64,000 bases of DNA, from NCBI GenBank assembly GCA_947085425.1, contig CAMTWK010000026.1:6507-70506 (forward strand). Direction: 5' to 3'. The position numbers were made by a program, and so were the translations under genes. This document shows, in pieces, positions 29,398 through 46,234 of the stretch. The notes beneath the pieces were generated by a model. The model searched no databases. It was not told the origin of the DNA and saw only the letters and a list, made by a program, of their open reading frames with translations. How positions within the stretch are numbered: the stretch's first letter is position 1; every line of letters starts with the position of its first letter. Source of the stretch: an uncultured Burkholderiales bacterium (GTDB lineage: Bacteria > Pseudomonadota > Gammaproteobacteria > Burkholderiales > Usitatibacteraceae).

Positions 29398-31265
29398 TGC
29401 GGCCGGCTTGGACATTGCCGAATAAGCCGTGCCAGGTGGTGTCCCTACACGCGCTGTTGCTGGTTTGTGCCGGCACTTGTGTCATGGATGTCGCGGCGTT
29501 TTCGCCACCAGCGTTAACGGCGCCACAGCAATTAGCCCCCACACCAGTGGACGAGGCCGAACCAATTGTGCGTTCGCGTGCACCGTCGGACACACGCACA
29601 CCCATGAAATATCCATTACCGCCCATCGACCCGACAAAAGTCGATGCGCCGACTCCTATGGATATTCGTCAATCCATCTCAGTGCCGGACCGCTGGCGCA
29701 TTATGGATTCGCTTGGGTTCAAATTTCCATGGTACGACCCGTATAACCACAACGTCTGGAAGGGTGACAAACCATTTCCACCGTTTGCCAAATTGCACGG
29801 TGGCAACAACAACGACTGGTTCTTGGCGCTGTCGGTGATTTCCGATTCGCTGATCGAGACGCGTCGGCTGCCGCTGCCGGTTGGCGCACAGTCGTCGTTG
29901 CGACCGGACGCGAACAATGTGTTTGGCCGTGGCAAACAAACGGTTTTTGTCGAGACCGTCATCCTGTCAGCGGCAGTGATCAAGGGAAACACCACCTTTC
30001 GCCCGCCCGACTACGAATTCCGTTTTGTGCCGGCCTTTCAAATCAACCATGCCCGCATCGGGGAGGTGCGCGGGTTAAAAATCGATCCGCGCCTTGGGAA
30101 GAGTCGCACCGACCGCCATTTTGCAGTGCAGGAATTATTCGGCGATGTGCATTTGCGCAACGTCTCCGACCATTACGATTTTGACTCGCTGCGGGTGGGC
30201 ATTCAGCCGTTCATTTCCGATTTCCGTGGTTTTGTTTTCCAAGATGTGCCGTTCGGCGTGCGCCTGTTTGGCAATCGCGACAACAATTTTTGGCAGTACA
30301 ACGTTGGTTATTTCCGGCGCATGGAAAAAGACACCAATAGCGGCCTCAATGACTTCAGCCAAAAAATGCGCCGCGATCATTTGTTTGTCGCCAATGCCTA
30401 TCACCAGGATTTTCCGGTCATCGGCCATACCACGCAGGCAACCATCATTCACAACGTCAACCGTGAATCAGCGGCGGATTATTACGATCGCAACGGCTTT
30501 TTGATCCGTCCGGCGGTGATTGGTGACGCACGACCGCGCAACTACAACGTGACTTATGTGGGGTTGAGCGGCGACGGGCACATCGATCGATGGAATCTGA
30601 CCACCTCGGTGTACGGCGCGTTCGGCACCGATCAGCGCCATCCGCTGGCGCAGAAAAAGCAAACCATTCGCGCCGGTTTCGCCGCCGCCGAACTTTCCCG
30701 CGACTTCAGCTGGCTGCGGGTGCGCGGCAATGCGCTGATTGCCAGCGGCGACAAAAATCCGTTTGACGGCAAGGCGACCGGCTTTGATGCCATTTTCGAA
30801 AACCCGCAGTTTGCCGGTGCCGACACCAGTTTTTTTATTCGCCAGGCGATTCCCCTACTCGGCGGCGGTGGCGTGGCCTTATCACAACGTAACGGTGTGT
30901 TGCCGTCGCTGCGCTCCTCCAAGGATCAAGGCCAATCGAATTTTGTCAATCCCGGCCTAACTTTGATTGGTATGGGCGCGGACGCGGACCTCACACCACG
31001 TATTCGACTGATTGCCAATATTTCCAAGCTCAATTTTATAAACACCTCGTCACTTTCGGTGTTGCGCAATCAACACGTCACGTCAAAAAATCTCGGAGTT
31101 GATATTTCGGCAGGTGTGCAAATCCGACCGGTCATGAGCCAGAACATCGTGCTCAACATTTCCGGCGCGGCGCTGCTTCCCGGCCGCGGACTCAAACAGT
31201 TGTACGATGAAGACAAACGTGGGCCGCAATATTCCGTGTTATTTAACTTGATCCTGACCTATTGA
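29394..31265 (+). CDS. Putative outer-membrane beta-barrel protein (no haem motifs)
   Basis: 623 aa with a signal-like N-terminus. Alternating hydrophobic patterns are frequent, and the C-terminus YSVLFNLILTY ends in an aromatic residue, as in OMP beta-signals. The start overlaps the upstream stop (GTGA; ATG 29397 is the alternative). Confidence 0.5.
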   Translation: MMRPAWTLPNKPCQVVSLHALLLVCAGTCVMDVAAFSPPALTAPQQLAPTPVDEAEPIVRSRAPSDTRTPMKYPLPPIDPTKVDAPTPMDIRQSISVPDRWRIMDSLGFKFPWYDPYNHNVWKGDKPFPPFAKLHGGNNNDWFLALSVISDSLIETRRLPLPVGAQSSLRPDANNVFGRGKQTVFVETVILSAAVIKGNTTFRPPDYEFRFVPAFQINHARIGEVRGLKIDPRLGKSRTDRHFAVQELFGDVHLRNVSDHYDFDSLRVGIQPFISDFRGFVFQDVPFGVRLFGNRDNNFWQYNVGYFRRMEKDTNSGLNDFSQKMRRDHLFVANAYHQDFPVIGHTTQATIIHNVNRESAADYYDRNGFLIRPAVIGDARPRNYNVTYVGLSGDGHIDRWNLTTSVYGAFGTDQRHPLAQKKQTIRAGFAAAELSRDFSWLRVRGNALIASGDKNPFDGKATGFDAIFENPQFAGADTSFFIRQAIPLLGGGGVALSQRNGVLPSLRSSKDQGQSNFVNPGLTLIGMGADADLTPRIRLIANISKLNFINTSSLSVLRNQHVTSKNLGVDISAGVQIRPVMSQNIVLNISGAALLPGRGLKQLYDEDKRGPQYSVLFNLILTY

Positions 31266-31266: not shown

Positions 31267-34200
31267 ATGAAACAAAACTCGTTTATGGGTAAGCCTTTTC
31301 AAGCAAAAATGTTCGTGAACGCGCTGCTGTGCTTGAGTTTGCTCGGCGCCGCTGTTGACACCACTGCCAGTGGCGGCGAAAAGCCGGTGGCGCGCAGCTA
31401 CGCGGTGACGCCGGCTGCGCCGGCGCGGCAATCGGTCATGGACGAATCACAAAAGTCATTTGGCTGTGTGTCGTGTCATACCACCACCGATCGCCATACC
31501 ATGCACGCCAATCCCGGTGTGGTGATTGGTTGCACCGATTGTCACGGCGGTGACGCCAAAGTGGTCAAGCCTGCCAATGTGGTTCGCACCGGTCAAGGGG
31601 AAAAACAATACGCAGAGTTGATGGCCAAGGCGCATATCCTGCCGCGTTTTCCCGCTGCCTGGAATACCCCGTCCAGCTCCAACCCGGAGTCAACCTACAC
31701 ACTGCTCAATCGTGAAGCGCGTGAGTTTGTGCGATTTATCAACCCCGGTGATTTACGTGTCGCCCGTGAAGCCTGCGGCGCCTGCCATCTGGAAATTATT
31801 CAGGCGGTCGAACGCAGCCTCATGTCAACTTCGGCGATGTTATGGGGCGGCGCATCGTATAACAACGGCATTCTTCCCTATAAGCGTTACATCCTCGGCG
31901 AAGCCTATACCGCCAATGGTGTGGGTGCGTTACTAAAGAATCCGGTGCCGGTCACCCCGCACATGACCGCGATGGGCATTCTGCCGTCACTCGCACCCTT
32001 ACCCGCCTGGGAAACGATTCCACCGGGTGATGTGTTCCGGGTGTTCGAGCGTGGCGGCCGGGTGATCAACACACAATTCCCCGAAGTCGGATTACCCAAC
32101 GTCAGCGGCGCGTTGCAAAAGCTGGATGAACCCGGCCGGCCGGACATCAAACAATCCAATCGTGGCCCCGCCACCGGTCAGCGAATCGCCGTACCGGTCA
32201 TCAACATCACCAAAACACGCCTCAACGATCCCCACCTGTGGTTCTTGGGCACCAACGAACAACCGGGTGACTATCGCTCCTCGGGTTGCACCGCCTGCCA
32301 TACCATTTACGCCAACGACCGCGACCCCAAACACAGTGGTCCGTATGCAAAGTTTGGCAACGAAGGCAAGAGTCAGAGCAAAGACCCCACCATCGACAAA
32401 ACCAAATCCGGCAGTCCGCTCAAACACGAGTTCACCCGCGCCATTCCCTCGTCGCAGTGTATGGTTTGCCATATGCACCAGCCCAACATATTCGTGAATT
32501 CGTTTTATGGCACCACCATGTGGGACTACGAAGCCGATGCGCCACAAATGTGGCCGAAAAAACAAAAGTACCCGACCGCCAAAGAATCGTTTGAGATTTT
32601 AAAACGCAATCCTGAGGAAGCGGCCACTCGCGGCCTGTGGGGCGACCGCGATTTCCTCAAACGCATCTGGGAAAACAACGACAAAAAGAAAGACACCCAG
32701 TTCGCCGATTACCACGGACACGGCTGGAACTTTCGGTATGTGTTCAAGCGTGATCGCAAAGGCACACTGCTCGATAAAAACAATGCGCCGGTGGCCGATA
32801 CCGATCCAAAAAAATTCGACAAGGCGGTACACCTGACCTCGATTCACCTCGACGTTGGCATGCATTGTGTGGATTGCCACTTCTCGCAGGACGTGCACGG
32901 CAACGGCCATATTTATGGCGAGGTGGCGGCGGCGATCGAAATTGATTGTATCGACTGCCACGGCACCGCCGACAAATTGCCAACACTGTTTACCTCCGGC
33001 CCGGCGGCCTCGCCGCAAGGTCGCGATTTACAACTGATGCGCACGCCGGATGGCCGCAAACGATTTGAGTGGATCAACGGTGACCTGTTTCAACGTTCGA
33101 GCCTCGATCCGAAACTCGAATGGAAAATGACCCTGGTAAAAAATAGTGTGACGCCTGGCAATGCCAAGTACAACGAAAAGGCGGCGCGCGCAAAATTAAT
33201 GCACAGCGGTGCATCGGGACGCGATGGGAATTGGGGGCCGGGTAGTACACCAACCCAATCGGCAGCAAACGATTACGCCCACAGCAACGAAAAAATGACT
33301 TGTTACACCTGCCATCTTTCCTGGACCACCTCGTGTGCGGGTTGCCATTTGCCGATTCAGGCCAATGCCAAAACCGATAAACAACATTACGAAGGGGGCG
33401 AATCACGCAACTACGCCACCTACAACCCGCAAGTGGCACGCGACGATATGTTTCAGCTGGGTCGCCACGGCCCGGTCAAAGGCAGCCGTATTGCACCGGT
33501 GCGCTCCAGCTCGGCGTTGGTCCTGTCGTCGATGAATGCCAATCGTGAGCGTATTTATATCCAACAGCCGCCGATTGCCGCAAGTGGCTTTTCCTCACAG
33601 GCGTTCGCACCACACTACCCACACACCGAACGCAAAACCGAAACCAAAACTTGTAGCGACTGCCACGCCGCACGCGACGGCGACAACAACGCCATCATGT
33701 CGCAGCTGTTGTTACACGGTACCAACTACGTAAACTTTGTCGGCTTTAATGCATGGGTGGGCTCCGGCAAACACGTTGAAGCCGTACAAGTCACCGAATG
33801 GGACGAACCGCAGGCGGTGATTGGTAGTTATTTACACAAATACGCCTATCCGGATTGGTTTCAGAATCATCAAAAAGCCGGAAAAAAACTGCAACTGCAT
33901 CATTCACAAAGCACCGGTGGTCAGGCCGGCTGTGTGCAATTGCGCGGCGAATATTTGTTCGTCGCGGAAGGTGCGGGGGGCTTTCGGGTCTATGACGTCG
34001 CCTCGATTGCCAACAAGGGCATCTCGCAACGCATTATCTCGGCGCCGTTTTCACCGTTGGGACAAAACACCAACGTACCATCCAAAAATGCCACTTGTAT
34101 GGCTCTACCCACCAATCAAGCCATTGCACCGGAGCGCAACCAAGGCGACTTGATGCGCACCACCAATCAAGAGCAGGCGTTTCATCCGATTTACCACTAC

Positions 34201-35109
34201 GCATTTGTGGTCGATGCGGAAGAGGGCTTGATTGTGGTGAACGTGGATACGCTGGCGGATGGTGAGCCGCGCAATAATTTCCTGAAACGCGCCGCAACCT
34301 GGAACGAAGGCAATGTGCTCAAAGGTGCACGCCACATCGTATTGGGTGGGTATTACGCCTACGTGGCAACCGACAGTGGTCTGGTGGTATTAAATTTGAA
34401 CGATCCGCTTAAACCGAAGGTGGCGGCGAGTCTGCCTCTCGACAATATTCGAGCCTCTGCGTTGCAATTTCGTTATCTGTTTGTGACCACCGCCAAAGGC
34501 TTGGAAATCATCGACATCACCGACCCGAACAAACCCGCCGTCAAGGCCGGTGTACCGCTCGCTGATGCACGCCGCGTCTATGTGGCACGCACCTATGCCT
34601 ATGTGGCGGCCGGGCGTGATGGCTTGGTGATTATCGATGTCGAAAAACCAGAACAGCCGCGCCTATACACAAGCTTTACCTCTGGTGACGGCATCAATGA
34701 CAGTCACGACGTGATTGTTGGCTCGACCAACGCTTCGTTGTTTGCTTATATCGCCGACGGCAAGAATGGCCTGAAGGTGCTGCAACTCACTTCACCGGAT
34801 TCACAACCCAAGTTTTACGGTTTCTCACCCGAACCCAAGCCCGAGCTGATTGCCTGGCGTAAAACCGATTCACCGGCGCTGACCCTGGCAAAAGGGCTGG
34901 ATCGGGATCGGGGTGTCGATGAAACCGGTGGACAGATTGCCGTATTTGGACGAATTGGTTCACGGCCGTTTAATCGCGGCGAAATGGATAAGTTTTACCT
35001 GACACCGGAAGGTAAATTGTGGACCGTGACCGACGCCATCGAGACTGGAAAATTTGTACCGCTATCCGCGATAGTGGCCGCACCAACGGCGAGCGGAGGA
35101 GCACGGTAA
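31267..35109 (+). CDS. Secreted 1280-aa decahaem c-type cytochrome with a C-terminal LVIVD-repeat beta-propeller region
   Basis: The signal peptide is MFVNALLCLSLLGAAVDTTA. There are ten CxxCH: CVSCH, CTDCH, CGACH, CTACH, CMVCH, CVDCH, CIDCH, CYTCH, CAGCH, CSDCH. The C-terminal ~400 aa carry repeated GLxVxxxxDPxxP units: GLIVVNVDTLADGEP, GLVVLNLNDPLKP, GLEIIDITDPNKP, GLVIIDVEKPEQP, GLKVLQLTSPDSQP. Confidence 0.85.
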   Translation: MKQNSFMGKPFQAKMFVNALLCLSLLGAAVDTTASGGEKPVARSYAVTPAAPARQSVMDESQKSFGCVSCHTTTDRHTMHANPGVVIGCTDCHGGDAKVVKPANVVRTGQGEKQYAELMAKAHILPRFPAAWNTPSSSNPESTYTLLNREAREFVRFINPGDLRVAREACGACHLEIIQAVERSLMSTSAMLWGGASYNNGILPYKRYILGEAYTANGVGALLKNPVPVTPHMTAMGILPSLAPLPAWETIPPGDVFRVFERGGRVINTQFPEVGLPNVSGALQKLDEPGRPDIKQSNRGPATGQRIAVPVINITKTRLNDPHLWFLGTNEQPGDYRSSGCTACHTIYANDRDPKHSGPYAKFGNEGKSQSKDPTIDKTKSGSPLKHEFTRAIPSSQCMVCHMHQPNIFVNSFYGTTMWDYEADAPQMWPKKQKYPTAKESFEILKRNPEEAATRGLWGDRDFLKRIWENNDKKKDTQFADYHGHGWNFRYVFKRDRKGTLLDKNNAPVADTDPKKFDKAVHLTSIHLDVGMHCVDCHFSQDVHGNGHIYGEVAAAIEIDCIDCHGTADKLPTLFTSGPAASPQGRDLQLMRTPDGRKRFEWINGDLFQRSSLDPKLEWKMTLVKNSVTPGNAKYNEKAARAKLMHSGASGRDGNWGPGSTPTQSAANDYAHSNEKMTCYTCHLSWTTSCAGCHLPIQANAKTDKQHYEGGESRNYATYNPQVARDDMFQLGRHGPVKGSRIAPVRSSSALVLSSMNANRERIYIQQPPIAASGFSSQAFAPHYPHTERKTETKTCSDCHAARDGDNNAIMSQLLLHGTNYVNFVGFNAWVGSGKHVEAVQVTEWDEPQAVIGSYLHKYAYPDWFQNHQKAGKKLQLHHSQSTGGQAGCVQLRGEYLFVAEGAGGFRVYDVASIANKGISQRIISAPFSPLGQNTNVPSKNATCMALPTNQAIAPERNQGDLMRTTNQEQAFHPIYHYAFVVDAEEGLIVVNVDTLADGEPRNNFLKRAATWNEGNVLKGARHIVLGGYYAYVATDSGLVVLNLNDPLKPKVAASLPLDNIRASALQFRYLFVTTAKGLEIIDITDPNKPAVKAGVPLADARRVYVARTYAYVAAGRDGLVIIDVEKPEQPRLYTSFTSGDGINDSHDVIVGSTNASLFAYIADGKNGLKVLQLTSPDSQPKFYGFSPEPKPELIAWRKTDSPALTLAKGLDRDRGVDETGGQIAVFGRIGSRPFNRGEMDKFYLTPEGKLWTVTDAIETGKFVPLSAIVAAPTASGGAR

Positions 35110-36503
35110 TGAATCTGACCCAAAATTTTTCCCGTCAATGGCTGAATGGTTGTGTGGCCATCATGACCATTACTGCCATCGGCTGCGCCATGTTGCTGCC
35201 GTTGCACGCCGCTGCCGCCACCACCGCGGTGACAAACACATCCTCACCGCTGCTGCCGTATCAGTCGCCACACAAAACAGAAGGCGCAGTGACCTGCGCC
35301 TCGTCGCTTTGTCATGGCGCAATTACCAGCTGGAAAGACTCCAACGTTTTACAAAATGAGTACATCACCTGGAGCCGGCTCGACAAACACGCCCGCGCCT
35401 ACAACGTCTTGCTCAATGATCAATCAAAACTGATCGCAAAAAATCTCGGTCTGACGGAACCGGCGCATCAGGCAAAAATTTGTCTCGATTGCCACGCCCA
35501 CAATATTCCCGCCGCACGACATGGCGAACGATTTACCTTACAGGACAACATCACCTGTGAAGCTTGCCACGGTCCGGCCGAAAAGTGGTTGCGTCCACAC
35601 GTTGAACCCAACGCCAGCCATGCAAAAAATATTTCCTTGGGCCTGTACCCGACCGACGATCCACAGGCGCGCGCGAAATTATGTTTATCCTGCCACTTCG
35701 GCAACAAAGACAAACTGGTCACCCATCGCATCATGGGTGCCGGCCATCCACGCATGAGTTTTGAGTTGGAAAACTTTACCGCGTTGGCACCACGCCACTT
35801 TACCGTCGACAAAGACTACAGCCAACGCAAACGCGTCTGGGATGGCCTGAAAGTCTGGGCGATCGGCCAGGCATTGGCCGTCAGTGCCACCCTCGATATT
35901 CTCAACGACGACAAACTCGGTCGCGATGGTTTGTTCCCGGAATTGGTGCTGTTTGATTGCCACGCCTGCCACCGGCCGATGTCGGAAAACCGCCTGCAGA
36001 CCACCACCCCACTCGGCACCCGTGCCACGCCGGGTTTGGTGCGTTTAAACGACGCCAATATGTTGATGCTGCGGGTGATTGCGCGCGCACTCGATCCGGC
36101 ATTGGGTGAGAAGGTATCTGCTCATACCGTTAAGTTGCACCGCGCAATTGCCGGCGACGGTGACACACGCCAAGCAGCGACCCATTTGCAATCGTTGGCG
36201 GAAAACGTCGTCAATCTGATTGAAGCGAAAAAAATTGACGGTCCATTCATGACCTCGATCGCGCTGGGTTTGGTGGATGACGGCATTAAAGGTCTGTATC
36301 GCGACTACAGCTCCGCAGAACAAGCTGCGTTGGCGATTTCATCGGTGGGGCAATTCATGGCCAAACATGATGTGATGAAGTCACCAACCGCCTTTAATCG
36401 CGAATGGCAGAAACTCAACGCAACACTCAAACACGATGAAAAATTCAAACCGGAAGAGTTTGTTTCCGGACTCAGGGCGTTACGGCCCACCTTGGTTAAG
36501 TGA
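35109..36503 (+). CDS. Periplasmic multihaem c-type cytochrome (4 CxxCH + 1 CxxxxCH)
   Basis: Lies in ORF 35019..36503. ATG 35109 overlaps the upstream TAA (TAATG). The signal peptide is IMTITAIGCAMLLPLHAAAA. Haem motifs are CASSLCH, CLDCH, CEACH, CLSCH and CHACH. Confidence 0.8.
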   Translation: MNLTQNFSRQWLNGCVAIMTITAIGCAMLLPLHAAAATTAVTNTSSPLLPYQSPHKTEGAVTCASSLCHGAITSWKDSNVLQNEYITWSRLDKHARAYNVLLNDQSKLIAKNLGLTEPAHQAKICLDCHAHNIPAARHGERFTLQDNITCEACHGPAEKWLRPHVEPNASHAKNISLGLYPTDDPQARAKLCLSCHFGNKDKLVTHRIMGAGHPRMSFELENFTALAPRHFTVDKDYSQRKRVWDGLKVWAIGQALAVSATLDILNDDKLGRDGLFPELVLFDCHACHRPMSENRLQTTTPLGTRATPGLVRLNDANMLMLRVIARALDPALGEKVSAHTVKLHRAIAGDGDTRQAATHLQSLAENVVNLIEAKKIDGPFMTSIALGLVDDGIKGLYRDYSSAEQAALAISSVGQFMAKHDVMKSPTAFNREWQKLNATLKHDEKFKPEEFVSGLRALRPTLVK

Positions 36504-36515
36504 GGCACACAAACC

Positions 36516-38924
36516 ATGACCATAGAACGATTTGAAATTGCCATTCTCGGCTCCGGCCCTGCCGGATTATCCGCCGCCGGCCATGCTGCGGAATTAAAGG
36601 TCTCGCATATTTTGCTGGAAGCCGAAAGACAACCGGCCAGCACAATTTTTAAGTATCAAAAAGGCAAACACGTCATGGCGGAACCAGCTGTGTTGCCACT
36701 GCGCAGCCCGATGAGCTTTTCCGCCGGCACCCGCGAAAATATTTTGGGCGCATGGGACAACGAGCTCAAAAAACTCGGCGTCAATATTCGTTATCAGGCC
36801 GAGGTCAAAACCATCACCGGCGAAAAAGGCGCGTTTGTCATCACCCTCACCAACGGCAGCAAGATTGAGGCCGGCACGGTGGTGTTGTCGATTGGTGTAC
36901 AGGGTAATTTGCGTAAACTCGGCGCGCCCGGCGAAGACCTGATGGAAGTGCAGTATCAATTGAGCGACCCGGCAGAATTCAACGACGAAACCATTTTGGT
37001 GGTGGGCGCGGGTGACGCGGCGATTGAAAATGCGCTGGCCTTGGCCAAACAAAACCGCGTCATTATGATCAACCGCAACGATGAATTCACACGTTGCAAA
37101 GACGGCAACTTGTCGGCCGTGCTGGATGCTATCTCCAACAACATCCTCGAATGCCGCTTCGGCACCAAGATCGATCGGGTCGAATCGACCAACGGCGAAG
37201 GTGACACTCCGATTCGTTTTATCGCCAATACCCCGCAGGGTGTGGAAACCATCAATTGCCATCGGGTGATTGCCCGCCTGGGTGCGACCCCACCACGTAA
37301 ATTGGTGGAAAGTTTTGGCATCACCTTCCCCAACAATGATCCTTCGTCGGTGCCGCAATTGTCGGCGCAATACGAATCAAACGTGCCCGGCATTTATATT
37401 ATTGGTGCCTTGGGCGGTTACCCGCTGATCAAACAGGCGATGAACCAAGGTTACGAGGTCATTGAATACGCCCTCGGCCGCAACATCGAACCGGCCGACG
37501 AACCGCTATTGCGCGCCAAATTTTCGACCTATCGTGCGGCCAAGAGTGTCAGCGAGGGTCTGGATCGTATCCGCGAAAATGTGCCGCTGCTGTCGGCATT
37601 GACCACCTTGCAACTGCGCGAATTTTTGTTGGACAGCGAAGTGCACACCCCGGCGTTGGGGGCCACCATCTTTGCCAAAAACGATTACACCAATTCTTTC
37701 TTTTCGATTGTCGAGGGCTCGGCGACCGTTGCCATCAAGGGTGCCGACGGCAAAGACGCCACGGTGGTTTTGAGCAAGGGGCAATTTTTTGGCGAAATGG
37801 GTTTGATTTCCGGACGCCGCCGCACCGCCACTATTCTTGCCGGCGACGATTGTGTATTGATCGAAACACCACGCCGTTCGATGTTGAAATTGCTCGCCTC
37901 GGTTGAAGCCGTGCGCAAAACGCTTGATCAGGTGTCACTGAAACGGGCGGTGCGCCAATATTTGCAAGCGCAAATTGCCGAAGAAGAAGTCGACTTTTTG
38001 GTCGAAGGTGCGGTCATCAAAAAATACGCGGCCAATGAAACTGTCTTTAACGAAGGTGACAAAGCCGACGGCCTGTACATGATCCGCCGCGGCTCGGTGA
38101 TGGTGTCACGCGCGATCTCCGGCAAAGAGGTGGTGATGTCGTACGTGTCGGCCGGAAACTACGTGGGTGAAATGGCGCTGATGTCGGATGCGCCCCGCTC
38201 CGCCACGGTGCGTGCGGCGGTACCCACCGAATGTGTGATGTTGGAGGCGCAACGGTTTGTCGACGTGGTCGGACGCAATAAAGCCATGCGTGGTGGTATG
38301 GATGCAAAACTGATGCAACGTATGTCGGCCAACCAGGCAATGGAATCAAACTCCGACTCGGGCAACCTGATTTCATTTTTAATGAAACAGGGGCTGGGCG
38401 AAGCCACTGACGTATTACTCATTGACGAGTCCTTGTGTATTCGCTGCAACAACTGCGAAAAAGCCTGCGCCGAATCCCACGACGGCACCTCGCGACTCGA
38501 TCGCGAAGCCGGTCCTACCTACGCACAAATTCATGTGCCAACCTCGTGCCGACATTGTGAACATCCACACTGCATGAAAGATTGCCCTCCCGACGCGATT
38601 CATCGTTCACAAAACGGTGAGGTGTTTATCAACGACGCGTGTATCGGTTGCGGCAATTGTGAAAAAAATTGCCCTTACGGTGTGATCCAATTGGCGCCGG
38701 CCATTCCCCCGGTCAATAAACCATCCGTACTGTCCTGGTTATTGTTTGGTTTAGGTGATGAACCGGGCATGTCCAGCCAGAAGGTCGACAAGAAAGCACC
38801 GAAAAAAGCCGTTAAGTGTGACATGTGCAAAGACCTGAAAGGCGGACCGGCATGTGTGCGCTCCTGCCCAACGGGTGCGGCGTTGCGTGTGTCACCCGAG
38901 CAATTTTTGGATTACACCCGCTAG
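36516..38924 (+). CDS. Cytoplasmic fusion: FAD/NAD(P)-binding oxidoreductase + two cyclic-nucleotide-binding domains + four-Cys-cluster ferredoxin domain
   Basis: 802 aa with dinucleotide folds IAILGSGPAGLSAAG and ILVVGAGDAAIENA. The cNMP motifs are FFGEMGLISGRRRTATILA and YVGEMALMSDAPRSATVRA. The Cys clusters are CIRCNNCEKAC, CRHCEHPHCMKDCP, CIGCGNCEKNCP and CDMCKDLKGGPACVRSCP. No signal peptide or TM was seen. Confidence 0.85.
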   Translation: MTIERFEIAILGSGPAGLSAAGHAAELKVSHILLEAERQPASTIFKYQKGKHVMAEPAVLPLRSPMSFSAGTRENILGAWDNELKKLGVNIRYQAEVKTITGEKGAFVITLTNGSKIEAGTVVLSIGVQGNLRKLGAPGEDLMEVQYQLSDPAEFNDETILVVGAGDAAIENALALAKQNRVIMINRNDEFTRCKDGNLSAVLDAISNNILECRFGTKIDRVESTNGEGDTPIRFIANTPQGVETINCHRVIARLGATPPRKLVESFGITFPNNDPSSVPQLSAQYESNVPGIYIIGALGGYPLIKQAMNQGYEVIEYALGRNIEPADEPLLRAKFSTYRAAKSVSEGLDRIRENVPLLSALTTLQLREFLLDSEVHTPALGATIFAKNDYTNSFFSIVEGSATVAIKGADGKDATVVLSKGQFFGEMGLISGRRRTATILAGDDCVLIETPRRSMLKLLASVEAVRKTLDQVSLKRAVRQYLQAQIAEEEVDFLVEGAVIKKYAANETVFNEGDKADGLYMIRRGSVMVSRAISGKEVVMSYVSAGNYVGEMALMSDAPRSATVRAAVPTECVMLEAQRFVDVVGRNKAMRGGMDAKLMQRMSANQAMESNSDSGNLISFLMKQGLGEATDVLLIDESLCIRCNNCEKACAESHDGTSRLDREAGPTYAQIHVPTSCRHCEHPHCMKDCPPDAIHRSQNGEVFINDACIGCGNCEKNCPYGVIQLAPAIPPVNKPSVLSWLLFGLGDEPGMSSQKVDKKAPKKAVKCDMCKDLKGGPACVRSCPTGAALRVSPEQFLDYTR

Positions 38925-39057
38925 GAGTCCGCGCGGACCCCTGGCTTGCGAGGCACTTCGCCTCTTTGGTTTTGGCGGAGGGCGTGGGTGCAGCGTTCCG
39001 CGTGGTTCGGCGTGGTGTAAGCAACACCCCGCAAAATGTCGGCAGCGGCGGCCTTGA

Positions 39058-39215
39058 GAAAGCACATTTAGGAAATTCAGTTCCGCTACATCCGCGCAAA
39101 AGCGTCAACTGACAAGGTCGACCCGACCCGGCGACATGCGTGCCACCCAAAAGCAACTCGGGCACGCATCAGCCAAGATGACGGAGCACTATGTTCGCGC
39201 CCGTTTAGGAAATGT
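39058..39215 (+). pseudogene. C-terminal fragment of a tyrosine integrase gene (remnant outside the current island)
   Basis: The frame containing ORF 39136..39351 reads ...RPGDMRATQKQLGHASAKMTEHYVRARLG, the conserved LGHxxxxMTxxYxH tail with the catalytic Tyr. A stop lies at 39055-39057 and no upstream catalytic boxes are present. Confidence 0.55.
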
Positions 39216-39328
39216 AGTTGAACCAGCGAAGTGGTTTTATCGCAGCAATAAAACCGTTGAATTGCGGAGCGCTCCGCAAGTCAACGGTTTCTCAACCGGT
39301 TCACACTTAACACAAGTACCTGATTTTA

Positions 39329-39374
39329 TTGGTGGGCCGTGTTGGACTTGAACCAACGACCAAAGGATTATGAG
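39329..39374. repeat. Distal att repeat: 46-bp exact copy of the 3' part of the tRNA(CAT) gene
   Basis: ttggtgggccgtgttggacttgaaccaacgaccaaaggattatgag is identical to 46189..46234. It runs from CCA to the anticodon loop. Confidence 0.95.
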
Positions 39375-39470
39375 CAGATTTGACGAGAAAAAACACTTAT
39401 TTTTCAATGCATTAGCGCACAAGTCCTGACTGTGTATTGGACTGTGTACGCTATGCAAATCTGATTATGA

Positions 39471-39935
39471 CTACTTTTTCTTAGCGTCCCTTTTTGCCTT
39501 CAATTGTGCTGAAAGTCGACCTGCGTTTTCTTTGAGTTGTGAATCAAATTCGCCCATCGAAACTGCTTCGCGCAATTTCTCGAACACAGGAATCAGGTTC
39601 GTCATTTCGCCAACTTCAACTGCGGTTTTACCTTTGGCGATCTCCAACGGTTTGTAGCCGTAACGAAGTTCGACGTAGGTTTTGCCGTCGTTGCCCTTGA
39701 ACCACATCTCACGCACCAAAGCATCGCGTTGCTGCGTCAGAACCGCGCCTGTCTCGTCATTCTTTACGCGCTTGATACGTGACACCGTCAAACGCTTTCC
39801 TTGCGACGCTGCGCGTGCTGCTTCGATCTGCTCGTGGATCGACGTAATCAGTTTGTTGCGACGAATAACTACCGCATCGACACGATTTGGACGTGTTACC
39901 GCCGATGCTTTTAGTGTTTGTAGGATGCTTGCCAT
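39471..39935 (-). CDS. Hypothetical protein (154 aa, Lys-rich C-terminus)
   Basis: A clean ORF, MASILQTLKASAVTRPNRVDAVVIRRNKLI...SAQLKAKRDAKKK. I recognise no motif. Confidence 0.5.
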   Translation of the reverse strand: MASILQTLKASAVTRPNRVDAVVIRRNKLITSIHEQIEAARAASQGKRLTVSRIKRVKNDETGAVLTQQRDALVREMWFKGNDGKTYVELRYGYKPLEIAKGKTAVEVGEMTNLIPVFEKLREAVSMGEFDSQLKENAGRLSAQLKAKRDAKKK

Positions 39936-40045
39936 GAATGCCTCGCTTTGTTGTTGATGACAAAAACGATGCTATGGACTTGGTGATTTACTGTCTATCT
40001 GCGAAGATATTTACTTGGCTGTCCGATAGTTAGTGCTCGTTCAAG

Positions 40046-40072
40046 AGACGCTCGCTGCTGCAGCGAGCGTCT
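40046..40072. other. Perfect 12-bp-stem hairpin
   Basis: AGACGCTCGCTG-ctg-CAGCGAGCGTCT lies between the IS remnant and the 154-aa gene. No T-run follows on either strand. Confidence 0.3.
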
Positions 40073-40118
40073 ATCGCTATTTAGGTGCTGAAAGTAATTT
40101 TGTGTAGACTGATTTTTG

Positions 40119-40282
40119 TTACAGTGATTTCGTACCGATGTCGAGTTTTCTGCCGACTTCCGCATACGTGAGTTTCTGCTCGGTGATGAGTTTGAAGGCT
40201 TCAGCTTTGAATTCGGCGGTGAAAGTGCGGCGGGGAATACGTTTCAAAATGACTCCCATGAAAAACGTTGGGACACTACTGA
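40119..40282 (-). mobile_element. Truncated IS3-family-like element: terminal inverted repeat plus the first 46 codons of an OrfA (HTH) transposase gene
   Basis: The minus strand reads TCAGTAGTGTCCCAACGTTT-ttc-ATG, then MGVILKRIPRRTFTAEFKAEAFKLITEQKLTYAEVGRKLDIGTKSL*. This is the RRxFxxEFKxxAV...LGI pattern of IS3/IS911 OrfA. The remainder is deleted. Confidence 0.7.
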
Positions 40283-40292
40283 CTTGGGCTAT

Positions 40293-41291
40293 ATGAAAAG
40301 AATTAAATTTATTGACTTGTTTTGTGGAATAGGTGGCTTTCACTATGCCATAGAAGATGCTGCGCGGAGATTAGGATTTGAGACCGAATGTGTATTTGCA
40401 AGTGATATAGATAAAGAAGCAAGCGTCGCTTACAACGAAAATTTTGGCATTGACTCACATAGTGACATAACAAAAATAGATGCTAAAGACATACCGCCAC
40501 ATGACATATTGCTTGCGGGATTTCCGTGCCAGGCGTTTAGCATTATCGGTGCAAGAAAAGGGTTTGACGATACAAGAGGCACACTATTTTTTGACATAGC
40601 ACGAATACTTAAAGAGAAGCAGCCCAAAGGTTTTGTCTTAGAAAATGTCAAGCAACTTCGAGGGCATGACGGTGGCAGAACTCTTGTTGTAATACTGGAC
40701 ACCCTAAAGGAATTAGGGTATCAGGTTGAATACAAAGTGTTGAATGCAAAAGATTTTGGATTGCCACAAAAAAGGGAACGCATCTTTATTGTGGGATGGA
40801 AATCAACTCTAAAATTTGATTGGGAATTTGACGAAGTGAAAATGACGCCATTATCAAAAGTTTTGGAAAAGAAAGTCGATAACTTTTATTATGCCTCCGA
40901 AAAAATTGTCGCTAGTAGAATGTTGAATGTAAAAGCAGCGCAAATTGAACATAATCGACCGACCATTTGGCACCAAAACAAAAGTGGCAACATAAGTGCG
41001 CACGAATATAGTTGCGCTTTACGAGCTGGCGCATCTTACAATTACTTGTTGGTAAATGGCGTGAGAAGAATGACAGAGCGTGAAATGCTTCGGCTGCAAG
41101 GATTTCCAGAGCACTTTAAGATAACGCATACATACGCGACAATAAGACGCTTTGCGGGAAATTCATTACCAATTCCAACTGCGAATGCGGTAATCTATAT
41201 GCTTATTGATAAAAATATCAAAAAAAGCTATGAGCCAAAGACTACCAAAGTTGCGACAAGCAATAAAGTCCACACCACTGTATCCACTTAA
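40293..41291 (+). CDS. DNA (cytosine-5)-methyltransferase (type II R-M, M subunit)
   Basis: Lies in ORF 40284..41291. Motifs in order are FIDLFCGIGGF (I), GFPCQAFS (IV), RGTLFFD, VLENVKQL (VI), QKRERIFIVG (VIII) and GNSLPIP (X). The wording is close to M.HhaI-type enzymes as I recall them; the specificity is unknown. Confidence 0.9.
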   Translation: MKRIKFIDLFCGIGGFHYAIEDAARRLGFETECVFASDIDKEASVAYNENFGIDSHSDITKIDAKDIPPHDILLAGFPCQAFSIIGARKGFDDTRGTLFFDIARILKEKQPKGFVLENVKQLRGHDGGRTLVVILDTLKELGYQVEYKVLNAKDFGLPQKRERIFIVGWKSTLKFDWEFDEVKMTPLSKVLEKKVDNFYYASEKIVASRMLNVKAAQIEHNRPTIWHQNKSGNISAHEYSCALRAGASYNYLLVNGVRRMTEREMLRLQGFPEHFKITHTYATIRRFAGNSLPIPTANAVIYMLIDKNIKKSYEPKTTKVATSNKVHTTVST

Positions 41292-41991
41292 CAGCTTTCC
41301 AAGCCAATTTGCAAAAAAATTAGCTGAATCAATTTGTGTGCATATAGCTACGCGAGGTGAGGCTGATTTAGAGGGAAATGAATGGGAACAAATATTTGCG
41401 AATTGTATTGGTGCTAAGTGGCATCCATCAAATATTGGATTGGACGACATTCAACACAACCAATCATCTACGGCTTGGGGTGCGAAAACTGTAAAAGGAA
41501 AAATTCTAACAACAAGTGAAGCAAACTTAAACCCACAAAAAGTGAGATTGATAAGTGGGCGAAATTCACCAAACTATAGTTACGAAGAAACAATTGACCC
41601 AAAAACGTCAGATCCAAATAAAGTTGGAGAGATGGTGCTTGATATTTGGAATACAAGAGTTAGAGAAGTAAGAGCACATTTTGGAAATTTAAGAACTGTG
41701 GTGTTGCTAAAAGGCGATGCGCTTAAAAGTGTTGCTGTATTTGAAATGGAAACAGAACTTTATATAGTTAAAGAATTTACTTGGAAGTGGAATAAGAATG
41801 GCAACTTGGAAGGATCCGATACAAATTCGGAGCATAGATTTACTTGGCAACCACACGGTTCGCAATTTACGATAATTGAATTTATTCCAACCAATGCGCT
41901 GCGATTAGCGATTAAACGACCAAAAGACATACCAAAATCAGAAGTGCTAAAGCAAATTGGCTTTAACGATACTTTTTTTAGTAGGATTTGA
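41230..41991 (+). CDS. Putative type II restriction endonuclease (partner of the m5C methyltransferase)
   Basis: Lies in ORF 41206..41991, same strand as the MTase gene, whose 3' end it overlaps by 62-86 nt depending on the start (ATG 41206 or 41230). I recognise no family motif; the call rests on context. Confidence 0.45.
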   Translation: MSQRLPKLRQAIKSTPLYPLNSFPSQFAKKLAESICVHIATRGEADLEGNEWEQIFANCIGAKWHPSNIGLDDIQHNQSSTAWGAKTVKGKILTTSEANLNPQKVRLISGRNSPNYSYEETIDPKTSDPNKVGEMVLDIWNTRVREVRAHFGNLRTVVLLKGDALKSVAVFEMETELYIVKEFTWKWNKNGNLEGSDTNSEHRFTWQPHGSQFTIIEFIPTNALRLAIKRPKDIPKSEVLKQIGFNDTFFSRI

Positions 41992-41993
41992 TA

Positions 41994-42167
41994 TCAGTAG
42001 TGTCCCAACGTTTACAAAGCAAGGCAATTTAATCGAATGATTTAATTGGTGAATTTAGCATTTACGTATGGTTTCGATTTGAATTGAAAAGCAAAATGCG
42101 CCGCTTATGAAATCAACAACTTACGGGCAAAATTACAGTCAAAATTCAAACGTTGGGACACTACTGA
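41994..42167. mobile_element. 174-bp MITE with 20-bp perfect terminal inverted repeats and a 7-bp target duplication
   Basis: It reads TCAGTAGTGTCCCAACGTTT ... AAACGTTGGGACACTACTGA, the same 20-mer as the IS remnant end at 40263..40282. It has no coding capacity and is flanked by TTTGATA (41987-41993) and TTTGATA (42168-42174). Confidence 0.85.
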
Positions 42168-42173
42168 TTTGAT

Positions 42174-42524
42174 ATGGGAAAAGAAGAATTAGAAGAGAGA
42201 TTTGTGGGGTATCTGACTCGTAAAATGAAACGAGATGGTAGGCTATACGGCAAGAGTTATTTGAAAGACAAGCTTGCACGCCTAAGAAGATTGCAGAAAA
42301 TCCTCCCAATCTCCAAATTAGGAAATATTACCGATGAAAATTATTTTGAACTTACAGACAAAGTAATGAAAAAGTTGAATCAACCTATTGGGTCTATTGG
42401 CAGGAACTATAAGTATGGTGACTGTATGGTGGTAATGCGTTTGTTATATGAAATGAATAATGCAGGCAAGCAAGGAAAACGATATGTTTATTATGGCGGA
42501 GTAAAAGTTCCTAATGCTAGATAA
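42174..42524 (+). CDS. Hypothetical 116-aa basic protein, originally abutting the restriction gene
   Basis: MGKEELEERFVGYLTRKMKRDGRLYGKSYLKDKLARLRRLQKIL. Its ATG begins at the last base of the MITE target duplication. It loosely resembles an integrase N-terminal SAM-like/core-binding segment. Confidence 0.45.
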   Translation: MGKEELEERFVGYLTRKMKRDGRLYGKSYLKDKLARLRRLQKILPISKLGNITDENYFELTDKVMKKLNQPIGSIGRNYKYGDCMVVMRLLYEMNNAGKQGKRYVYYGGVKVPNAR

Positions 42525-42594
42525 AATATATCTTCACTAAATAACACAGTCTGCAAATTTTGCAACGCATGAAATGCGTGAGTGCACCTATGCT

Positions 42595-43176
42595 CTAAAT
42601 CAAATCTATTGCTCGGCGCATCATCTCATCGTTTAGATCAATATAGCGTTGCGTGGTGCTCATGTGTTTGTGTCCTGCCAACGCCATTAGCACTCGAACG
42701 CCAACCCCTTTGTTCGCAAGCGTCGTGATGAATGTTCTCCGACCACTGTGACTCGTCGCACCTGCAATTCCTGCACGGTGATACCAAATCCGCATCATTT
42801 GGCACAGCGTATTGCCGCTGAATCCATTTCTATTGCGTTGAGAACCGATTAGCGGTGCGTTGCTGTCATTGAATTTCGTTGCTTTGATGTATGACGCCAA
42901 CTCGCGCTGCAATTTGTTGCCGACGATTACGACGCGTCCCTTGTTGCCCTTTGTTTGGTCAGAGCTCAATCGAATCTCCGATTTGATCGTTCCATCGACG
43001 TTGAGTACATCGGCAACTTTGATCGCGGCAATTTCACCGACCCTCATGCCGCCCCATGTTGACAACAAAATCGCCGTTCGATTGCGCGCAGGATGCGGAC
43101 CGATTGCTAAACGAGCCAGGACGGCACGTAGTTCTTTTTCGCTGAGTGTTTTTGCTTGTGGCATTTTTGTAAGCAT
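42595..43176 (-). CDS. Short (193-aa) tyrosine recombinase, catalytic domain only
   Basis: Catalytic boxes are present: GMRVGEIAAIKVADV (Arg I), TKGNKGRVV (beta-hairpin Lys), HSGRRTFITTLA (His-x-x-Arg II) and LAGHKHMSTTQRYIDL (His/Tyr). Confidence 0.8.
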   Translation of the reverse strand: MLTKMPQAKTLSEKELRAVLARLAIGPHPARNRTAILLSTWGGMRVGEIAAIKVADVLNVDGTIKSEIRLSSDQTKGNKGRVVIVGNKLQRELASYIKATKFNDSNAPLIGSQRNRNGFSGNTLCQMMRIWYHRAGIAGATSHSGRRTFITTLANKGVGVRVLMALAGHKHMSTTQRYIDLNDEMMRRAIDLI

Positions 43177-43345
43177 CTAATGAAATGATGTGCCAACGGT
43201 AATTGCTTATTTAATTAATGTCCATCTTTTTGGACCGTCGAAAAAAATGCTTAGCACTCAATCGGTTGGCACTACAAATAACAAATTGTGGAAAATGTTA
43301 GATACCGAGAAAGTTGCTGTCCGTCGCCTTACGTGTTGGTCGCGG

Positions 43346-43510
43346 TCACTTGAACTGAACTGATTTTGACTTCAAGAACTCCTTGATCGCTACTCGGTAA
43401 ACGTACGAAGGTTTGGTGTCCCAATCAGCCGCAAATTTGCTGACGAAATCGTGCCATGTCTTTGGCAATCGAAGCGAGGTCAAATGCTTTTCGGTTTTGG
43501 TGTTTTTCAT
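43346..43510 (-). CDS. Ribbon-helix-helix (CopG/Arc-like) small protein, 54 aa (below the ORF-track cut-off)
   Basis: ATG 43510 follows a GGGAGA RBS. The product is MKNTKTEKHLTSLRLPKTWHDFVSKFAADWDTKPSYVYRVAIKEFLKSKSVQFK*. It has a beta-strand (LTSLRLP) followed by two helices, typical of RHH proteins. Confidence 0.6.
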   Translation of the reverse strand: MKNTKTEKHLTSLRLPKTWHDFVSKFAADWDTKPSYVYRVAIKEFLKSKSVQFK

Positions 43511-43519
43511 GTCTCTCCC

Positions 43520-43696
43520 TTAGGTTTCTATAACGATCAACGTAAAGTCGTTTGCGCCATCGCGCATCTCGTTTATCTCGCGGACAAATCTATACATTCC
43601 AAATTGGTTGGCGACGTCAGCGCTAAAGATATTCTTGATTTCATTATTTTTAATGAAGTCGCTTAGCTGCTTCTTAGTAATCATTTCGTATTCCAT
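43520..43696 (-). CDS. Small hypothetical protein, 58 aa (paralogue A, unlisted in the ORF track)
   Basis: ATG 43696 follows an AGGA RBS. The product is MEYEMITKKQLSDFIKNNEIKNIFSADVANQFGMYRFVREINEMRDGANDFTLIVIET*. Its stop lies 9 nt before the RHH start. Confidence 0.5.
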   Translation of the reverse strand: MEYEMITKKQLSDFIKNNEIKNIFSADVANQFGMYRFVREINEMRDGANDFTLIVIET

Positions 43697-43707
43697 ATTT
43701 TTCCTTT

Positions 43708-43887
43708 TTAGGTTTCCAATAAGATCAAGGTTATTTTCCTTTTGGAAATTCTCTTTTTCTTGATCTCATTCATGAAATTGGTTAGACCAAAATCATCTTC
43801 AATGTCATCAATCAATAAGTTTCTTATGTTGGCTGCTTGAATTAATTTCATTAGGTCTTGTTTTGTTTTGATTTCTTTCTTAAGCAT
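43708..43887 (-). CDS. Small hypothetical protein, 59 aa (paralogue B, unlisted in the ORF track)
   Basis: ATG 43887 follows an AGGGA RBS. The product is MLKKEIKTKQDLMKLIQAANIRNLLIDDIEDDFGLTNFMNEIKKKRISKRKITLILLET*. It aligns with paralogue A (KxQL, I.N, D...FG..F..EI, TLI..ET*). Confidence 0.5.
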   Translation of the reverse strand: MLKKEIKTKQDLMKLIQAANIRNLLIDDIEDDFGLTNFMNEIKKKRISKRKITLILLET

Positions 43888-43907
43888 TCTTTTCCCTTAC
43901 ACGATTT

Positions 43908-43919
43908 CACGTTAACGTG
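43908..43919. promoter_or_regulatory. Perfect palindrome CACGTTAACGTG upstream of the small-gene operon (candidate operator)
   Basis: A 12-bp dyad lies 21-32 nt upstream of ATG 43887 on the transcribed side. An RHH repressor is encoded in the operon. Confidence 0.3.
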
Positions 43920-44067
43920 TTGTCTTGTATTTATCGGGCTAAAGAATCGAAGATGAATCTAACGGCAATAAAGTGAACTGCAACCTTAGAAAATTGCACT
44001 CATTCAGATATCCATAACAAAAATTGGTCGCGGTTAATCCACAGACCTCACCACTGACTACTACTGT

Positions 44068-44574
44068 TTACCCAATCTCGCCGAACCGACGTTGCTGAAA
44101 CGGAACCTGCTTCGTCACGTAAAACAGCAACTGTTCAAGGTCAACTACGCCGCGCACGTCCACCTGCGAAGAATGCGTGCTCGTACCAAACATTTTTTGC
44201 CATTGCTTGGACACGAATTGCTCCACTTGCTCAACACTTCTGCGGACGCTGCCGTCGTGCATTGCTAACAGGTGAATATGTACTCGACCTGTTGCTTCAC
44301 CGACCTCGCGCGTTGCGACGATGGTCAAGCGCGAGTTTTGCTCGCCGCGTGCGCAACGCCGCCCAAAGCAAAATTGATTCAGTCGCTTTGAAATTTCCGC
44401 AATGATTGGCTCGCAATTATCGAAATGCCGACTCGTCTTTGGGTCGACATATGAGTCAACGCATCGATTGGTATTCAGCGTGATGAAGTAACCGTGCTGC
44501 TCATGTGCAAGTCGCTTTTGCCATGCCGAAACGACTTCGGCTTGCGAATAGAATCTTGAGGTTCTTGTGTCCAT
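44068..44574 (-). CDS. HUH-superfamily Rep-like protein (inovirus Gp2 / YagK-YfjJ-like)
   Basis: 168 aa with three ordered motifs: GYFITLNT (motif 1, FxTLT-like), RVHIHLLAM (motif 2, HUH) and LLFYVTKQ (motif 3, YxxK). Confidence 0.6.
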   Translation of the reverse strand: MDTRTSRFYSQAEVVSAWQKRLAHEQHGYFITLNTNRCVDSYVDPKTSRHFDNCEPIIAEISKRLNQFCFGRRCARGEQNSRLTIVATREVGEATGRVHIHLLAMHDGSVRRSVEQVEQFVSKQWQKMFGTSTHSSQVDVRGVVDLEQLLFYVTKQVPFQQRRFGEIG

Positions 44575-44779
44575 TTTCCGTGTGCATACTTGTGTTGTTG
44601 TATGTTCTATTTATGCTTGGGACGGACCAAAAATGCCGAAATCTGAAAATAAATTTTGATTCAGATGCGGTTTTTAACGCAAGTGATTGCTTACATCGAG
44701 TTAGGGCACTCCGCAGGTGCTTTTCCGTTTCATTGCGTACCATAAGCTTATCGATAAGCGTCACAACGAAAGCGCGCTG

Positions 44780-46188: not shown

Positions 46189-46234
46189 TTGGTGGGCCGT
46201 GTTGGACTTGAACCAACGACCAAAGGATTATGAG
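46189..46234. repeat. Proximal att repeat inside the tRNA gene
   Basis: Identical 46-mer to 39329..39374. Confidence 0.95.

Follow-up and report, generated by a model that had tools for sequence, protein, structure and literature searches.

What does a protein that joins a flavin domain, two cyclic nucleotide-binding (CNB) domains and a polyferredoxin do at the end of an operon of multihaem cytochrome genes? The question is raised by a stretch of 64,000 nucleotides (the window) from an uncultured Burkholderiales bacterium of the Usitatibacteraceae (positions 6,507 to 70,506 of contig CAMTWK010000026.1, assembly GCA_947085425.1), in which the gene called T here (36516-38924) closes a series of seven closely spaced genes in the order B-F-H-U-L-C-T. 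The conserved core of this operon is a triad consisting of T, the membrane protein B and the decahaem cytochrome F. The reading to which we give slightly better than even chances is that T serves, on the cytoplasmic side, as the redox subunit of a transmembrane T-B-F conduit, which would be driven by NAD(P)H, carry electrons outwards and be gated by cyclic nucleotide monophosphates (cNMP).

The modules of T and the membrane protein B

T is a single-copy gene in its source genome and encodes 802 amino acids. Its ATG lies 12 nucleotides past the stop codon of the upstream cytochrome gene, with a GAGG at 36502-36505, ten nucleotides 5′ of the start; T, its parts and the other six genes of the operon are all on the forward strand. 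An earlier, sequence-only reading of this DNA had described a single cytoplasmic polypeptide with three types of module: an N-terminal flavoprotein with two dinucleotide-binding motifs arranged as in thioredoxin reductase (TrxR) and no CxxC pair, two complete cNMP-binding cassettes, and a polyferredoxin of the DmsB/NrfC type. Apart from the type of the polyferredoxin, to which we return below, this description has held up. The open reading frame (ORF) translates as described, and the domain profiles that the same reading had proposed to run recover the flavin module (Pyr_redox), two cNMP_binding domains and an Fe-S module (Fer4 families) in Pfam. Judged by the E-values and by the invariance of residues across 76-80 homologues, the domain assignment is far beyond chance. 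The close homologue sets comprise these 76-80 sequences, at 55-92% identity, and the distant set comprises 35 full-length sequences at 33-59% identity. The AlphaFold2 (AF2) model of T, built on 76 homologues, has a mean pLDDT of 83.3 and a pTM of 0.70; the architecture as a whole is without a counterpart in the PDB, and the Foldseek matches are confined to the N-terminal ~330 residues. A cytoplasmic location of T is supported by the absence of a signal peptide or membrane helix, the sequence scan showing no hydrophobic segment; there is in fact no room for a signal peptide, since the β1 strand of the Rossmann fold begins at residue 4.

The N-terminal module (residues 4-320; 36525-37475) has the TrxR fold for flavin adenine dinucleotide (FAD) and NAD(P)H. 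This was recognised by Pfam (Pyr_redox_3, 1.2e-27 over residues 10-297; Pyr_redox_2, 3.5e-26 over residues 7-312), by PDB sequence matches at ~20% identity (Thermus 2zbw, S. aureus Bdr/YpdA 7a7b, the R. palustris ferredoxin-NADP+ reductase (FNR) 5ygq and true TrxRs) and by Foldseek, in which the AF2 model matched no PDB entries other than proteins of this kind, best of all Bdr (7a7b) and a TrxR in the flavin-reducing conformation (5mh4) with an E-value of 1e-25 and a TM-score of 0.85. T has the features by which the low-Mr TrxR superfamily is defined, a two-domain FAD plus NAD(P)H fold with a GxGxxG and a GxGxxA motif, here GSGPAG (residues 12-17; 36549-36566) and GAGDAA (residues 164-169; 37005-37022), and G12, G14, G17, G164, G166 and D167, and also E171, are invariant in close and distant homologues alike. 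The redox-active pair is missing: the CAVC of S. aureus TrxR aligns with the Q-L-S-D of QYQLSD (residues 146-151, within 36948-36980), and none of the five Cys of T outside the Fe-S module is conserved (none in residues 1-640). T was rejected as a TrxB (TIGR01292; 67.3 bits against a cut-off of 343.45, CxxC absent) and likewise as a YpdA/Bdr bacillithiol disulfide reductase (TIGR04018; 104.6 bits against 339.9), and the Cys in the GGGPCG motif of YpdA/Bdr is Ala in the GSGPAG of T. Because these scores are far under the equivalog cut-offs, the N-terminal domain is classed here, on its sequence, as a TrxR-fold NAD(P)H flavoenzyme that is neither TrxB nor Bdr. By analogy it functionally most resembles the TrxR-type FNRs. 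Its coenzyme preference appears to lean towards NADPH, since R187 and R193, in the NADPH-loop INRNDEFTRCK (37068-37100), sit at the positions of the 2′-phosphate binders of the TrxR HRRxxxR motif (the second Arg of HRR being Asn or variable) and β2 is not followed by an acidic residue.

A linker with the motif EPADEPLL (37488-37511) marks the junction with the first CNB domain and is conserved in a family-specific manner, with D328 and L332 invariant in this region and P326, A327, P330, L331 and K335 kept in at least 90% of the sequences. The CNB-A domain (residues 366-483; 37611-37964) was delimited by Pfam and contains the phosphate-binding cassette FFGEMGLISGRRRTAT (residues 424-439; 37785-37832); the CNB-B domain (residues 484-612; 37965-38351) was delimited by its best Pfam stretch, 502-587, and by the AF2 secondary structure, and contains the cassette YVGEMALMSDAPRSAT (residues 549-564; 38160-38207). 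The Pfam cNMP_binding profile (PF00027) matches T in two stretches at 5.1e-40 (135.8 bits against a gathering threshold of 27.5), and both cassettes have the Gly-Glu and Arg-[ST]-Ala by which PF00027 cassettes are recognised. Among the 76 sequences, F425, G426, E427, G433, R434, R435 and R436 are invariant in CNB-A, and G551, E552, R561 and A563 in CNB-B. When residues 366-612 were compared with PDB sequences, they matched the CNB-A/CNB-B tandems of PKG and the PKA regulatory subunit (PKA-R) at 1e-28 to 1e-17 and CRP at 1e-12. The AF2 model shows a long C-helix of CNB-B (residues 589-610) running into the Fe-S module, to which it is joined by a linker of low confidence (611-632). In PKA, PKG, Epac and HCN the C-helix is the part that moves when the nucleotide binds.

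The C-terminal module (residues 633-795; 38412-38900) would hold four [4Fe-4S] clusters. Such a module is defined by the motifs CxxCxxCxxxC(P), CxxCx4Cx3CP, CxxCxxCxxxCP and CxxCxnCx3CP with 16 Cys in all, and T has all four, at residues 641-651 (38436-38468), 678-691 (38547-38588), 709-720 (38640-38675) and 768-785 (38817-38870); the 16 Cys are all invariant across 80 close and 35 distant homologues. Pfam Fer4 families match over residues 673-788 (best 8e-12). As to type, the best PDB matches are HycB3 (3e-18), the HycB of formate hydrogenlyase (FHL; 8e-17) and ArrB (7e-16), followed by NrfC and FdnH, and the best PDB and NCBIfam matches share their four Cys motifs with T: they are the cytoplasmic HycB/HydN wires, such as HycB3/HycB4 of the hydrogen-dependent CO2 reductase (HDCR) and HycB of E. 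coli FHL. The four Cys clusters of the sequence-only reading therefore stand, and the affiliation is with HycB/HydN and not with DmsB/NrfC proper. T is an equivalog neither of HydN (58 bits against 260) nor of DmsB (56 against 214), as it scores under both NCBIfam cut-offs.

Gene B (24839-25678) encodes a 279-residue membrane protein with five predicted helices, whose start is M13. Numbered from M13, its invariant His are H83 and H97 in the third transmembrane helix and H257 and H271 in the last one, each pair spaced H-x13-H, together with H107. Because the two helices have the same predicted orientation, this spacing fits two bis-His haems, one by each face of the membrane, and B is probably a di-haem b protein. 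By the positive-inside rule, a helical insert of ~100 residues between its fourth and fifth helices would lie in the cytoplasm, where it is a candidate docking surface for T. The AF2 model of B is confident (pLDDT 91.4). The Pfam match of B to Ni_hydr_CYTB is weak and sub-threshold (8e-5; 23 bits against 30.1), and the label "ferric reductase like" that the ESM-Atlas automatically gives to the B cluster was taken as a lead only.

The triad across genomes

A word-indexed protein search retrieved more than 120 full-length relatives of T at 65-92% identity, which have the identical Pfam set and whose names go no further than "cyclic nucleotide-binding domain-containing protein". Species-representative genomes contain at least 591 relatives at 55-92% identity, mostly in Beta-, Gamma- and Alphaproteobacteria, and an exhaustive HMMER search gave 921 50%-clusters at E<=1e-30. 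Loci were compared for the best 80 of the at least 591 relatives; these come from the Usitatibacteraceae, Casimicrobiaceae, Limnobacter and Gallionella among the Burkholderiales, and from the Lysobacterales, Steroidobacteraceae, Nevskiaceae and several Alphaproteobacteria. Tahibacter soli (L077) and Oceanibacterium hippocampi (L070) are cultured carriers.

When the flanks were searched by tblastn with six partner proteins, at least one partner was found at 74 of the 80 loci. Two of the other six loci end at contig ends, and F is encoded elsewhere in all five of those genomes that were searched. The genes come in two circularly related orders, B-F-H-U-L-C-T in the Burkholderiales-type operons and (C)-T-B-F-H-U-L in the Gamma/Alpha-type ones, in which B adjoins T directly; the order C-T-B-F was seen at L068, L080, L076 and L078. 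The minimal set, T-B-F with C, was found in a metagenome-assembled genome of a marine Rhodospirillaceae bacterium (MAG; L064), and the triad can still be recognised at 33% identity in L095, where a T-like gene accompanies a 275-residue membrane protein with both H-x13-H pairs and an FHA-like decahaem protein.

The link between T and F was also examined in a sample of 300 genomes of the class, evenly drawn and at least 90% complete. T and F were each present in 13 of the 300, and these were the same 13 genomes, from at least 11 genera (12 of 12 if the unpublished G042 is left out); the genomes counted are related and hence not independent, and the pattern is without exception. The sequence-only reading had asked whether this architecture co-occurs with the multihaem genes and had named as evidence against itself an architecture that is widespread without multihaem neighbours and has a known unrelated role. 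We looked for this combination and did not find it: the architecture is widespread, but it does not occur independently of the multihaem genes, to which, as to B and F, T is obligately tied, and it is not known to have an unrelated role. In one genome, G134 (C12 and C14), both T and F are present in two copies, at 52-53% and 29-30% identity to the proteins of the window, which suggests duplicated or paralogous conduits.

The third member of the triad, F (25691-27487), has an FHA head, one transmembrane helix and a periplasmic decahaem cytochrome c part. It is followed by H (27484-29397), a lipoprotein with three HbpS-like domains; U (29394-31265), an exported protein of 623 residues that has no Pfam match and is conserved in the synteny; L (31267-35109), a decahaem cytochrome of 1280 residues with an LVIVD β-propeller, 57-89% identical between loci; and C (35109-36503), a c554-like cytochrome with four CxxCH and one Cx3CH, directly 5′ of T. 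When all the flank ORFs of the 80 loci were clustered, nothing emerged beyond the seven genes of the operon, shadow ORFs on the antisense strand and housekeeping synteny specific to a lineage; there was no recurrent cyclase, kinase or phosphatase beside the cluster.

Proposed electron path, direction and control

In the path that we propose, NAD(P)H would reduce the FAD of the TrxR-fold domain, from which electrons would leave singly into the four fused [4Fe-4S] clusters. They would pass to the two bis-His b-haems of B, stacked across the inner membrane, then to the ten periplasmic c-haems of F, and from F onwards to C (the tetrahaem), H (the HbpS-like lipoprotein), U (exported) and L (the decahaem protein with LVIVD). 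Binding of cyclic AMP (cAMP) or cyclic GMP (cGMP) would gate the flow by changing the position of the Fe-S wire with respect to the flavin or B. We propose gating because the CNB tandem separates the flavin module from the Fe-S wire, which itself is carried on the C-helix of CNB-B, an arrangement that makes cNMP control of transfer within T, or from T to B, structurally plausible. Outward flow, which we hold to be a little better than an even bet, is favoured over inward flow, which we hold to be unlikely, because the cytoplasmic end is a pyridine-nucleotide flavoenzyme, because the membrane potential aids the outward movement of electrons and opposes the inward one, and because an energy-coupling module is absent from the cluster.

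Several points weigh against this reading. Outward transfer driven by NAD(P)H dissipates the membrane potential and would not by itself be an energy-conserving respiratory step; the system would therefore deliver low-potential electrons to the outside and not respire in the usual sense. The haems of B rest on the His pattern and one weak profile match. A Foldseek search with the model of B gave no PDB match at E<=0.001, and a PF01794 profile search of the genome gave nothing at E<=1. Membership of B in the NOX/FRD or cytochrome b561 families was consequently dropped, the His pattern being all that was retained of it, and B may be a putative di-haem protein of an undescribed, possibly new membrane fold. 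The cassette Arg is retained in just 22-25 of the 35 most divergent full-length relatives, so that cNMP control may not be universal in the family. Finally, the sequencing runs that contain the T sequence are DNA metagenomes only, with no RNA run among them.

The first alternative is the opposite direction. An external or periplasmic donor would then feed the multihaem proteins, B and the Fe-S wire, and the flavin would reduce NAD(P)+, as in the Tmc/Hmc complexes of sulfate reducers or in the uptake routes that have been proposed for iron oxidisers. TrxR-type FNRs are generally known to be reversible, and the triad is present in Fe(II) oxidisers of the Gallionella/Ferrigenium type (L048). A preprint on Ferrigenium straubiae (10.64898/2026.01.22.701106) proposes inward flow through the nonahaem partner, and a Gallionellaceae pangenome (PMC10734462) lists the FHA-decahaem protein for 27 genomes. 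Electrons moving from the positive to the negative side would nevertheless have to oppose the membrane potential, and NAD(P)+ (~-320 mV) lies uphill from Fe(II) and from most periplasmic donors. The quinone or proton module that could serve as a coupling device is not visible in the cluster, and the carriers belong mostly to lineages of aerobic heterotrophs (Lysobacterales, Steroidobacteraceae, Limnobacter, Oceanibacterium).

A second alternative, improbable to a like degree, leaves the path as it is and concerns its control. The CNB domains might not sense cAMP or cGMP at all and might act as a scaffold, for dimerisation or as a spacer, or have a different ligand, in which case T would be an unregulated NAD(P)H:Fe-S subunit. 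Many bacterial domains with the CNB fold are known to take other ligands, those of CooA, NtcA and CprK for example; moreover, the cassette Arg is gone in about one third of the most divergent relatives, as noted above, and one relative (P0177) is without a recognisable cassette. This explanation does not account easily for the cyclic-phosphate and ribose contacts G426, E427, R436, G551, E552, R561 and A563, which are invariant at 55-92% identity while their surroundings vary, nor for a flavin-less variant (P0263) in which both cassettes are canonical. The top PDB matches are genuine cNMP-binding tandems, those of PKG and PKA-R, and the source genome encodes three class-III nucleotidyl cyclase domains.

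It is very unlikely that T is a redox and cNMP sensor, in effect a regulatory subunit without bulk flux, which would inform the conduit of the NAD(P)H/Fe-S state of the cytoplasm, by way of the FHA head of F for instance. The cluster does contain two cytoplasmic modules of the signalling type, the CNB tandem of T and the FHA head of F, and Fe-S clusters are generally known to be capable of sensing. However, a complete NAD(P)H-flavin domain followed by a four-cluster wire with invariant Cys and HycB matches is the anatomy of electron transfer, and neither Pfam nor NCBIfam recognised an output domain in T. That T is a free-standing cytoplasmic reductase, such as a low-molecular-weight-thiol disulfide reductase like YpdA/Bdr or a variant TrxB, placed beside cytochromes by chance, can practically be dismissed: although YpdA/Bdr provides the top NCBIfam and Foldseek matches of the N-terminal domain, the scores given above are far under the cut-offs, the flavin domain is without any conserved Cys, and the complete co-occurrence with F and the synteny extend across three proteobacterial classes.

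The gated outward T-B-F conduit thus remains the reading that we prefer, and a more far-reaching version of it can be put forward only tentatively. T-B-F could be a new kind of inner-membrane electron gate that connects the cytoplasmic NAD(P)H pool directly to a periplasmic and outer multihaem chain, bypasses the quinones and is switched by cAMP or cGMP on T and, at the FHA head of F, by phospho-threonine signalling. In that case it could be the first electron-transfer enzyme gated by a cyclic nucleotide, and an NAD(P)H-driven route of wide occurrence by which aerobic Proteobacteria export low-potential electrons. To our knowledge, the known envelope conduits (the Mtr, Pcc, Mto and Cyc2 routes) take electrons from the quinone pool or deliver them to it, and their regulation is transcriptional. 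The family is found in hundreds of proteobacterial species of soil, sediment, freshwater and the sea, and it carries two intact cNMP sensors in the middle of an electron path; if the proposal is right, the system would connect the reducing power of the cytoplasm with redox chemistry in the periplasm or outside the cell, through a link that is gated post-translationally. A testable function would then also be at hand for gene clusters that two recent studies call highly transcribed or conserved but "completely unknown", and the cultured carriers Tahibacter soli and Oceanibacterium hippocampi make genetics and biochemistry feasible.

Known systems, variant loci and the rest of the window

The modules that make up the family of T are known ones, and earlier publications have already taken note of its genes. 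The TrxR-type FNRs (B. subtilis YumC and those of C. tepidum, R. palustris and Thermus, 2zbw) and YpdA/Bdr have the fold, the dinucleotide motifs and the missing CxxC in common with T. In the FNRs electrons go singly from FAD to a separate Fe-S protein, a partner that in T is covalently fused; T differs from these enzymes and from YpdA in its ~20% identity to them, in scoring under the NCBIfam cut-offs and in the two CNB domains that separate its flavin and ferredoxin parts. The NCBIfam match of T to AegA/YgfT spans residues 635-794. In E. coli AegA/YgfT, a single cytoplasmic chain likewise combines a HydN-like module with an NADPH flavoprotein. Compared with T, the order of the domains in AegA is reversed, the flavoprotein is GltD-like and not TrxR-like, and there are neither CNB domains nor multihaem partners.

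TmcABCD/HmcABCDEF of sulfate reducers and the NOX/ferric reductases resemble T-B-F in having cytoplasmic Fe-S or flavin parts, a di-haem b in the membrane and an acceptor or donor on the outer face, which is an analogy only, and they have no cNMP or FHA domains, unlike T and F. The H-x13-H pairs on two helices of B resemble the haem ligation of NOX/FRD, with no homology detected by PF01794 or Foldseek. Among the NCBIfam and PDB matches, canonical CNB domains are fused to effectors in the mycobacterial Pat acetyltransferase, the EAL protein Bd1971 and the family 2B encapsulin shell, as in T; those proteins are not electron-transfer proteins, whereas T has a tandem like those of PKA-R and PKG between two redox modules. 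A literature search for a characterised CNB-TrxR-ferredoxin fusion returned nothing relevant.

Two preprints and the pangenome describe what appear to be parts of the same system. The ptd preprint reports ptdDEFG as genes for a tetrahaem protein, a cNMP/Fe-S protein (PtdE), a ferric-reductase-like membrane protein and a decahaem protein, whose function it calls "completely unknown". This is the C-T-B-F order of the Gamma/Alpha-type loci, the likeness being judged by description and gene order and not by sequence; the marine ptd cluster has PtdA, PtdB and PtdC where the operon of the window has H, U and L. The "two 4Fe-4S clusters" that the preprint ascribes to PtdE appear to be an underestimate for T, because the Fe-S module of T has four Cys motifs with 16 invariant Cys. 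The Ferrigenium straubiae preprint describes an FHA-nonahaem protein, a membrane protein that has five helices and no recognisable motif, and a [4Fe-4S] protein, and it leaves their roles open; this triad matches T-B-F, again by the descriptions and not by sequence. The pangenome names its 10-haem protein a "forkhead-associated protein". Neither the preprints nor the pangenome describe the flavin domain of T, its four-cluster wire and conserved cNMP cassettes, the His pairs of B or the strict co-occurrence of T with F. T belongs to a large, uncharacterised family that is set apart by its combination of domains and its gene context as a new variety of transmembrane electron-transfer system.

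Some loci depart from the common pattern. At L092 (1291-7854) a flavin-less variant of 506 residues, with two CNB domains whose cassettes are both canonical and an Fe-S module, is accompanied by genes for a 69-residue ferredoxin, a divergent Pyr_redox_2/Reductase_C flavoprotein, a metallo-β-lactamase-fold protein and a 791-residue c554-type cytochrome. It may be a natural "split" form of the input module, a single case that fits an input from NAD(P)H through ferredoxin to Fe-S. For two further flavin-less proteins (P0253 and P0206) the contigs were too short for neighbours to be seen. P0187, considered as a new architecture, proved to be a split or frameshifted T (233 + 564 residues). At L090 (4952-7349) and L091 (2859-5256), T is likewise represented by ORFs of 233 and 564 residues that lie one nucleotide apart, with the break inside the flavin domain; the recurrence of this break in contigs of several sequencing runs suggests either a frameshift or a genuine two-gene form. 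A full-length relative of 34% identity at L093 (8001-10430) follows rpoD and lies beside Planctomycete-type PSCyt3/PSD and HXXSHH genes, with no B/F triad within the flanks, and this may be another type of setting, on the periphery of the family. Clusters of near-identical organisation also occur in MAG records labelled Vicinamibacteria, Mycobacteriaceae, Streptomycetaceae or Sulfotelmatobacter (L024, L017, L026 and L073); either the operon as a whole has been transferred horizontally or proteobacterial contigs have been mis-binned.

On the other side of B, the window contains a complete System I cytochrome c maturation (ccm) operon on the reverse strand (16969-24531; ccmA, B, C, E and F, the redoxin gene ccmG, ccmH and ccmI), divergent from the multihaem operon. 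Genes of the ccm set were not recovered near T at other loci within the flanks examined, and we do not claim the adjacency as conserved. A weak terminator-like hairpin with a T-run (38950-38974, forward strand; a 5-bp stem and a consensus match only) is found 26 nucleotides past the stop codon of T. The DNA 3′ of T (38925-46266) looks mobile, with a DUF6641 gene, a C5 DNA methylase gene and integrase genes at 42595-43176 and 44780-46039. Since this DNA, its integrases and a tRNA gene on the reverse strand (46193-46266) all lie 3′ of T, the operon ends at an integration hotspot.

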